64,000 bases of DNA. Source: Eledone cirrhosa. Lineage: Eukaryota. The notes under the pieces were generated by a model. That model did not search any database, was not told the origin of the DNA, and worked only from the letters and a program-made list of their open reading frames with translations. The first letter of the stretch is position 1. Each line of letters opens with the position of its first letter. The position numbers were made by a program, and so were the translations under genes. The DNA is taken from positions 148,428,001 to 148,492,000 of the forward strand of contig OZ024741.1 in NCBI GenBank assembly GCA_964016885.1, given 5' to 3'. Positions 47,766 through 48,590 of the stretch are shown here, one piece after another.

Positions 47766-48590
47766 GAGAGAATTAGTATATCTACCAACATATGTATACA
47801 GATGTATACCCATGCTAGCAAATATATATGTTATGTCTTAGTACCTTTGTGGTTCTATGCAGGGGGATGCAGAACAATTATGTGAAAGACGTAAAGTAAG
47901 AAAATTTTAAAAATTAACTTACTAAAATTTTCACTCCAACTAATTAGTTTCTGTAAGGGAATAAATATAGTTACGCAACGCAACTATAGAGAAGTCCTTA
48001 CGTCATCAGGGAGTCTATTCTCAGCTAGGTTTCCAGGCAATGCGCGGACACTAGGAACCCATATAAAAATAATAATTAACTGGATGGAATAAAGCTAGCG
48101 GGGACTAAATTCCAGGGCACTGAAAAAATTCACTGCCTACTTGGTCAGTGGCAAATTCTAAAGAATCAATCACGTGACACTGAGGTTAATCATTGAGGAG
48201 TGGGGTGGTATTATGACAAGAGCCTAACTACTACCATGAACCATAGCAGTAAATTTCGGCAAGTTTTGCTCAACAAATAATTTGGAGATAAATATAGAGA
48301 ATTAGTATATCTACCAACATATGTATACAGATGTAAACCCATGCTTGCAAATATATATGTTATGTCTTAGTACATTTGTGGTTCTATGCAGGGGGATGCA
48401 GAACAATTATGTGAAAGACGTAAAATAATAAAATTTTAAAAATTAACTTACTAAAATTTTCACTCCAACTAATTAGTTTCTGTAAGGGAATCAATATAGT
48501 TACGCAACGCAACTATAGAGAAGTCCTTACGTCATCAGGGATTTTAGTAAGTAAGTTAATTTTTAAAATTTTCTTATTTTACGTCTTTCA
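47766..48590 (-). mobile_element. Retrozyme-like element: 529-nt tandem unit with hammerhead and a short terminal inversion
   Basis: 47771-48012 is repeated at 48300-48541. HHRs at 47933-48014 and 48462-48541. 48542-48590 is an inverted copy of an internal part. Confidence 0.75.
47933..48014 (-). ncRNA. Type I hammerhead ribozyme with extended stem II
   Basis: actcc-CTGATGA-c-gtaagg..tatagttgcg/cgtaactata..ccttac-a-GAAA-ctaattag-TT-ggagt. Confidence 0.75.

Follow-up and report, generated by a model that had tools for sequence, protein, structure and literature searches.

A strict two-ended insertion footprint in a non-coding 529-nt hammerhead family of Eledone cirrhosa that fits the animal non-LTR retrozymes

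Main Finding

A 529-nt hammerhead family found in a window of 64,000 nucleotides from Eledone cirrhosa (contig OZ024741.1; "window" denotes this whole stretch) is marked by a strict two-ended insertion footprint. Copies ended at two fixed 3' places ∼115 nt apart, site B (∼58 nt past the predicted cleavage site) and site A (∼173 nt past it), and every head-to-head insertion combined one A end with one B end, both among 63 position-sampled loci (34/34) and among all 110 loci (52/52). Judged from its sequence, the family fits a class that has already been described, the animal non-LTR retrozymes, as non-autonomous PLE derivatives.

Insertion Structure at the Window Locus

The window copy comprises 1.46 head-to-tail units with a 50-nt inversion at the 5' end and microsatellites on both flanks (Table 1), in agreement with an earlier note on this sequence that had counted about 1.45 tandem copies. 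That note had also seen the terminal inversion and the flanks, but overlooked that they constitute a PLE insertion footprint. The two direct copies were 97.5% alike, with six substitutions in 243 nt. As the note had stated, the unit contains no ORF: read as a circle, its longest ATG ORF was 43 aa in sense and 27 aa in antisense, and an autonomous PLE (with an RT and GIY-YIG ORF) was rejected on this ground. Site B is a TATA/TATAT-type stretch across the family and CATA in the window copy. Two TAAG repeats were found in the inverted arm and one in each direct copy, which argues against a single RNA as the source of both arms here.

Table 1. Features of the 529-nt family insertion in the window.
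Feature	Coordinates	Strand	Remarks
Whole insertion	47770..48590	-	Inverted B-arm plus 1.46 head-to-tail units, terminating at site A
Cleavage-to-cleavage unit, 529 nt	47938..48466	-	Predicted monomer or circle; 36% GC; without ORF
Upstream partial copy, 5'-truncated (pseudo-LTR equivalent)	48299..48541	-	
Direct copies	48541-48299 and 48298-47770	-	772/529 = 1.46 units
Inverted arm, ∼50 nt (48541-48590)	48541..48594	+	Ends at fixed site B, passes via TATA into (TA)n
Target (TA)n microsatellite on the A side	47466..47741		
Target (TA)n microsatellite on the B side	48590..48821		
(TC)15 run	47741..47771	-	Grown out of the element's terminal TCTC
Site B within direct copy	47879..47883	-	∼58 nt past cleavage site; putative RT start
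Tail, site B to site A, ∼115 nt	47770..47890	-	Hairpins ∼47890-47835 and 47826-47777, both conserved
Site A, fixed 3' end	47764..47771	-	TCTCTATA at interior junctions; ∼173 nt past cleavage site; putative RT start
Downstream type I hammerhead	47933..48014	-	Predicted cleavage after 47938
Downstream stem I	48014-48010 with 47937-47933	-	5 bp, ACUCC/GGAGU
Downstream core	48009-48003	-	CUGAUGA; then unpaired C48002
Downstream stem II	48001-47996 with 47958-47953, plus distal helix	-	Then unpaired A47952
Downstream GAAA	47951-47948	-	Palindromic stem III
Upstream hammerhead	48462..48541	-	Stem I 3 bp; predicted cleavage after 48467

Several other features were noted in the window. A candidate tRNA-like SINE head, read from the sequence, adjoins the lower flank of the element (47300-47465), and an Rfam tRNA match lies at 17400-17470. 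On the minus strand, a 1056-aa LINE ORF with RVT_1 and endonuclease domains (48822-51992) ends right beside the (TA)n of the element. At 27726-28500, a direct repeat with 610-nt spacing, bordered by (TA)n on one side and (TC)n(TA)n on the other, has a similar layout, with no hammerhead called inside it. Broken Rep/helicase-like ORFs at 54123-58483 (minus strand) presumably resemble a Helitron, to go by their motifs.

Ends and Arms across the Family

For the end calls, pure alternation was required of a microsatellite, so that AT-rich interior sequence was excluded. Sites A and B are both TATA-like stretches beside hairpins; of the 32 consensus pairs in the tail hairpins, three showed double changes (21 copies). 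In addition to the head-to-head insertions, the 110 loci included 54 single ends and 8 loci at which no end was called. The family displays 5' truncation, partial tandem duplication and an inverted 5' arm. Either arm can be the longer one (the A-arm in 18 of 33 pairs), and in 28 of 33 pairs the A-arm exceeded 120 nt and overlapped the B-arm region. All 33 junction pairs differed, indicating that the composite insertions were made anew.

Arm lengths were analyzed in a set of 91, after two spurious short arms and five unaligned end calls had been dropped. The cleavage site was crossed by 81 of the 91 arms, 35 exceeded one unit and 21 held two cleavage sites, while the number stopping within 10 nt of the cleavage site (4/91) was close to the ∼3.5 expected under a uniform spread. 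The longest sampled arm measured 2.6 units, and an arm of more than two units was present at one of the 63 sampled loci. This free passage and the lack of excess stops rule out that the template was usually a linear cut monomer, and read-through of this kind implies a template that is either a circle or an uncut multimer; of the two, we favour the circle.

Runs of (TC)3 or longer were confined to terminal A junctions (37/87, versus 0/98 interior junctions), a restriction that, together with the pairing of one end of each type, suggests twin priming with stutter. We read the distribution as slippage when synthesis is initiated at site A, although slippage next to (TA)n at a later time may also account for it.

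Opposite arms of the same insertion were on average 97.5% identical, compared with 85.1% to other loci, and their rare variants were shared in 48 and unshared in 188 cases, against 57 and 849 for nearest neighbours at other loci; five compound or array loci were excluded from both comparisons. Identity within a locus equalled or exceeded that to the best other locus in 24/64 and 29/70 pairs. Compared in order to tell one source RNA from two, a hypervariable AT tract was equal in length in 17/35 same-direction, 22/57 opposite-arm and 344/1669 between-locus pairs.

Hammerhead Structure and Conservation

The two minus-strand hammerheads described in the earlier note are present: their CUGAUGA cores lie at 48538 and 48009, and cleavage is predicted after 48467 and 47938, exactly 529 nt apart. 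Its account of the downstream copy was accurate in each part: a 5-bp stem I, an extended stem II, a palindromic stem III (ACUAAUUAGU) and a predicted GUU cleavage site. The 51-nt spacer between CUGAUGA and GAAA holds two helices, a distal one and a proximal one of 6 bp, the latter preceded by an unpaired C and followed by an unpaired A. The 3-bp stem I reported for the upstream copy was confirmed as well; such a form occurred in 1 of 161 full hammerheads (GACTCC in 110/161) and is an accident of the inversion junction, because the inverted arm joined inside stem I and cut its 5' strand.

Across the family the type I core (CUGANGA, GAAA, NUH and three stems) was found, and it was intact in 142 of the 161 full hammerheads (185 sites found); the unpaired C before stem II was present in 155/161 and the unpaired A after it in 161/161. 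These unpaired nucleotides at the base of stem II, together with the GUU site, may slow the self-cleavage that is predicted for the family from its sequence.

Alignment of genome copies for stem covariation, which the earlier note had proposed as a check, was carried out on 50 of 130 distinct copies, nearly all of them one per locus. In these copies 96.4% of stem cells were paired, a value as high in 0/500 shuffles. Stem II covaried: six pairs showed double changes (107 cells, a count inflated by the kinship of copies), and the covariation score (0.267 versus 0.014-0.075 in slid controls) was reached by 0/500 shuffles. The pair-count and type-count measures were not above shuffles (198 and 489 of 500), and stems I and III were almost invariant and hence little informative on compensatory change. 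To judge from these substitution patterns, the hammerhead-to-hammerhead unit is under selection for its RNA fold.

Predicted RNA Folding

The stem III palindrome is predicted to form a duplex of -9.0 kcal/mol and no hairpin by itself, which fits the dimeric cleavage reported for PLE hammerheads (PMC4209133). Forcing the monomeric active fold had a predicted cost of 3–6 kcal/mol locally and, within the whole transcript, of 9.3 kcal/mol for the upstream and 6.1 kcal/mol for the downstream hammerhead. Furthermore, pairing is predicted between the inverted arm and the 60 nt that immediately follow the upstream cleavage site. The earlier note's interpretation was upheld as regards a hammerhead-to-hammerhead unit, but release of a unit from this locus is doubtful given the upstream cost of ∼9 kcal/mol and the clamp formed by the inverted arm. 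The joining of the B-arm inside stem I likewise makes the window copy a doubtful source of unit RNA. Back-splice-like junction reads, also proposed as a check, would not be discriminating, since religation at the cleavage site recreates the sequence of any tandem DNA copy.

The 529-nt unit folded more stably than shuffled sequences (z -4.67 linear; z -6.4 circular, against 30 shuffles) into a predicted structure that is branched, 64% paired and not rod-like. Rfam returned no hammerhead match in the element at gathering or E-value thresholds; its matches were weak and miRNA-like, and fell on the inverted repeat and the TA repeats.

Further type I hammerhead candidates were observed in the window at +24805, -52481, +27402, -27649, -63065, -38724 and -8398, some having a long stem II or a stem II flanked at either end by an unpaired nucleotide. 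Other candidates, with stem II regions of 49–52 nt, were located at sampled loci (L082 -2319, L084 -1674, L002 -3076 and L159 +181). Hammerheads with stem II regions of this length would be missed by short-stem descriptors and may bear on the hammerhead lack reported for some PLE clades.

Distribution in the Genome

The hammerhead 20-mer had at least 9,366 exact matches in the 3.0 Gb genome, compared with none for a reversed control, and the tail motif had 8,368. On this count, and on the pairing relative to shuffles, the hammerhead observation is not a matter of chance. A DNA search gave 3,602 candidates, with full-length matches among the 40 scored being 92–97% identical. The family is dispersed over many chromosomes and divides into subfamilies ∼71–97% identical to the window unit; unit length was 522–571 nt in 48 of 49 cleavage-to-cleavage units, the exception being a deleted copy of 478 nt.

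The position-ordered sample was drawn from the first 100 matches that were listed for contig C1 and numbered 63 loci. It was selected by the exact hammerhead 20-mer and is thus biased towards arms that reach the hammerhead; one locus (L069) doubles as a top match, and three (L040, L041 and L076) appear to be the same insertion in duplicate. The addition of 31 loci from top matches and 16 by tail motif brought the total to 110. Sequencing runs (three from one sample, of unstated kind) yielded short contigs whose summed depth was very high. Arrays of 3.6 units (L191) and 6.8 units (L101, 1168-4905) were encountered; variants in the latter were shared with a two-unit periodicity, and their recurrence every two units indicates growth at the DNA level after insertion. 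Long arrays that also grow at the DNA level could serve as linear masters.

Other Families with the Two-Ended Rule

A second hammerhead unit family of 469 nt (window 58588-60068) had 3,159 exact 21-mer matches and forms long tandem arrays, with ∼15 units at C1:14.04 Mb. Its copies have two fixed ends ∼74 nt apart, and insertions combined one of each in 6/6 cases (11 loci, one call loose). The claim that the two elements share an architecture was thus borne out in an unrelated family that follows the same two-end rule. The accompanying claim of no sequence similarity held insofar as the families are unrelated, apart from a marginal 20-nt match in a hairpin stem (BLAST E 0.096; as high in 3/200 shuffles). 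The "diversified class" suggested on this basis had already been described as the animal non-LTR retrozymes (PMC7229834; 10.64898/2026.07.22.740005).

PLE-type coding fragments are abundant in the genome: two window proteins gave 38,093 and 93,618 first-look candidates. One young family, presumably an active autonomous PLE and Neptune-like to go by its motifs, was 96–98% identical at the protein level and retained an intact 1211-aa ORF (L173 2458-6093). It possesses its own hammerhead and two ends ∼50–60 nt apart, lies in (TA)n, and followed the one-of-each rule in 6/6 cases (34 loci). The strict rule was therefore observed in three unrelated families (52/52, 6/6 and 6/6). A copy of the young family occupies window positions 34990-37940; the intact ORF elsewhere carries an Asn-rich insert. 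Other PLE-type fragments at 32653-34737, 25549-25992 and 28956-29618, one of which yields the 93,618 candidates, contain what we take to be RT-like and C-terminal GIY-YIG-like motifs. Pfam gave a weak RVT_1 match for a window PLE fragment.

No autonomous PLE with sequence in common with the 529-nt family was identified in 30 loci or in 16 tail-selected loci. A tblastn search of the window PLE fragments against the family loci returned unlinked neighbours only, and scanning all loci for hammerheads revealed no motif like that of the 529-nt family behind any ORF. The hammerhead and 3' end of the young PLE family are unrelated to those of the 529-nt family. The search for a partner by pLTR sequence sampled two of many PLE families.

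Comparison with Known Elements

Animal non-LTR retrozymes have been described as type I hammerhead units in tandem whose RNA occurs as circles, PLEs being the proposed drivers (Cervera and de la Pena 2020, PMC7229834), and a recent preprint ties retrozymes to PLE pLTRs and a PLE origin (bioRxiv 10.64898/2026.07.22.740005, Li, Clavereau and Pollet 2026). The 529-nt family agrees with these accounts in its non-coding tandem units with one type I hammerhead each, its 36% GC, its thousands of copies, the absence of an LTR (the terminal repeat is a variable partial tandem) and the co-occurrence of PLEs. Its units of 522–571 nt exceed the 170–400 nt given in PMC7229834 and fall inside the 51–972 bp given in 10.64898/2026.07.22.740005. 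In contrast to those reports, it consists mostly of dispersed two-armed (TA)n insertions, and no pLTR homology to a partner was found among the PLE families sampled; furthermore, its circles are predicted, whereas those of the published retrozymes have been reported as RNA.

Published descriptions of PLEs include partial tandems, inverted arms, a tail of 30–40 bp that is often one-ended, and a (TA)n bias (PMC8557442, PMC3846280, PMC8969392). The 529-nt family resembles the PLEs so described (Craig 2021, PMC8557442; Frangieh 2024, PMC11167929; PMC3846280) in 5' truncation, partial tandem, an inverted 5'-truncated copy, a one-ended tail, two fixed ends, AT-rich or microsatellite targets and a hammerhead upstream of the ends. 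It differs from them in having no ORF, a tail of ∼115 nt rather than the usual 30–40 nt, a TATA overlap with the target at both ends and (TC)n growth at one end. In the PLE studied in vitro, the tail is reported to sit between two RT start sites, with both target strands cut and extended; homology between start site and target was absent there (PMC11167929), whereas a TATA overlap exists in the present family. Unlike the minimal and dimeric PLE hammerheads of Cervera and de la Pena (2014, PMC4209133), the present ones have a second unpaired nucleotide (A) before GAAA in 161/161 cases; their stem II region is 51 nt long and includes another helix that covaries, and their stem III palindrome is longer. 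MRC1 and other non-autonomous Chlamys elements (PMC8557442) are likewise described as non-coding PLE derivatives with pLTRs and head-to-tail multimers; they are, however, algal, generally share 3' sequence with autonomous families (none was found here in the loci searched) and mostly have no hammerheads. Among the titles and abstract openings searched, with subscription papers outside that search, we found no published strict one-of-each count and no report of twin priming for PLEs or retrozymes.

Proposed Mechanism and Alternatives

That the 529-nt family is a non-coding element mobilised by PLEs, from either a circular or an uncut multimeric template, is in our view very probable. The specific version we prefer, and regard as reasonably likely, is that a PLE RT-endonuclease acting in trans inserted the hammerhead-cut, probably circular unit RNA of a non-coding PLE derivative into (TA)n. 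Under this mechanism a two-hammerhead locus would be transcribed, and its RNA would be cleaved, probably as a dimer via the palindromic stem III, and the monomer ligated to a circle, by extension from published retrozymes. The PLE enzyme would then nick both (TA)n strands, and each nick would prime at a different one of sites A and B, the two places at which copies are observed to end. Both cDNAs would run past the cleavage site, frequently completing more than a single lap and with variable stops, as the architecture of the arms displays, and would be joined head to head. Slippage at the site A start may extend TCTC to (TC)n in the pattern observed. About one quarter of arms, with their two cleavage sites, could be the source of a further round. 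In the window copy, the A-arm would have run for 1.46 units and the 50-nt B-arm been joined inside stem I. The PLE-type ORF family in the same genome and the shared two-end rule were counted in favour of a PLE driver. By analogy with other systems there is also evidence against this mechanism: in vitro, one of nine predicted Xenopus retrozyme dimers was reported to cleave (10.64898/2026.07.22.740005), and a PLE used uncut RNA, with hammerhead mutants inserting normally (PMC11167929).

That same in vitro preference for unprocessed RNA as main substrate (PMC11167929) is an argument for a possible, though in our estimate less likely, version in which the same PLE derivative is copied from uncut head-to-tail multimers transcribed from a few master arrays, the hammerhead acting as a fold or flank trimmer and circles playing no part. 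Arrays of suitable length exist (L191 and L101, the latter grown at the DNA level), and the longest sampled arm extended to just 2.6 units. However, arms of more than one unit are common (35/91) but arms of more than two were seen at 1/63 sampled loci, and with so few long arms linear copying would shorten the copies each round unless rare masters dominate; moreover, many subfamilies (∼71–97%) keep the core and a covarying stem II with no ORF as a reason. A more elaborate form of the preferred mechanism, which we put forward tentatively, is that a dimeric PLE enzyme cuts both (TA)n strands and must prime one strand at A and the other at B on a small ribozyme-made RNA circle, with strand-displacement laps and a telomerase-like start of (TC)n.

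Mobilisation without PLEs was considered in three forms. A SINE-like RNA moved by a LINE (e.g. the RTE-like elements common in the window) through L1-style twin priming is very unlikely: LINE ORFs are abundant, including that at 48822-51992 with its RVT_1 and endonuclease domains, and twin priming is reported to yield 5' inversions (PMC2837659), but the second end here is fixed rather than variable, the A-arm overlaps the B-arm region (>120 nt in 28/33 pairs), the element has no poly(A), tRNA head or B-box, and a PLE-type ORF family of the same genome has the identical two-end rule. Spread without RNA, as a satellite or fold-back DNA element bearing a relic hammerhead, would account for tandem arrays, inverted ends and the expansion within L101; it is largely refuted by the stem covariation and the one-of-each ends, conflicts as well with polarised 5' truncation from fixed 3' ends, with unequal arms that have different ends and with dispersal over many chromosomes, and is given a very slight chance. 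Slighter still is that of an endogenised viroid-like circular RNA replicating from RNA to RNA, for which size, strong folding and the many subfamilies speak, whereas the element has no opposite-strand hammerhead and no Rfam ribozyme, its predicted fold is branched and 64% paired rather than rod-like, and its insertion ends are PLE-specific. As classifications of the element itself, a viroid-like or HDV-like RNA was rejected (ribozymes not on both strands; fold not rod-like), as were a tRNA-derived SINE (no tRNA match within the element, no B-box) and a TIR element or MITE.

Implications

Because the class is known, the element itself is no surprise; its value is that of a natural experiment. 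The making of PLE pseudo-LTRs, inverted arms and tails has been called an open question (PMC8557442), and the reported link between retrozymes and PLEs has relied on co-occurrence and pLTR similarity, mainly in vertebrates (10.64898/2026.07.22.740005). Here, a non-coding retrozyme with a full PLE footprint is present in a large animal genome, and its short RNA, with putative start sites mapped, is usable for the questions of twin priming and circular templates. The family also illustrates one way in which compound (TC)n(TA)n microsatellites come about. If priming at both sites on a ribozyme-made circle proves to be obligatory, then asymmetric twin priming of that obligatory kind would account for pseudo-LTRs, inverted arms and the one-sided tail alike, and a test of it could use the 529-nt RNA as a minimal substrate.
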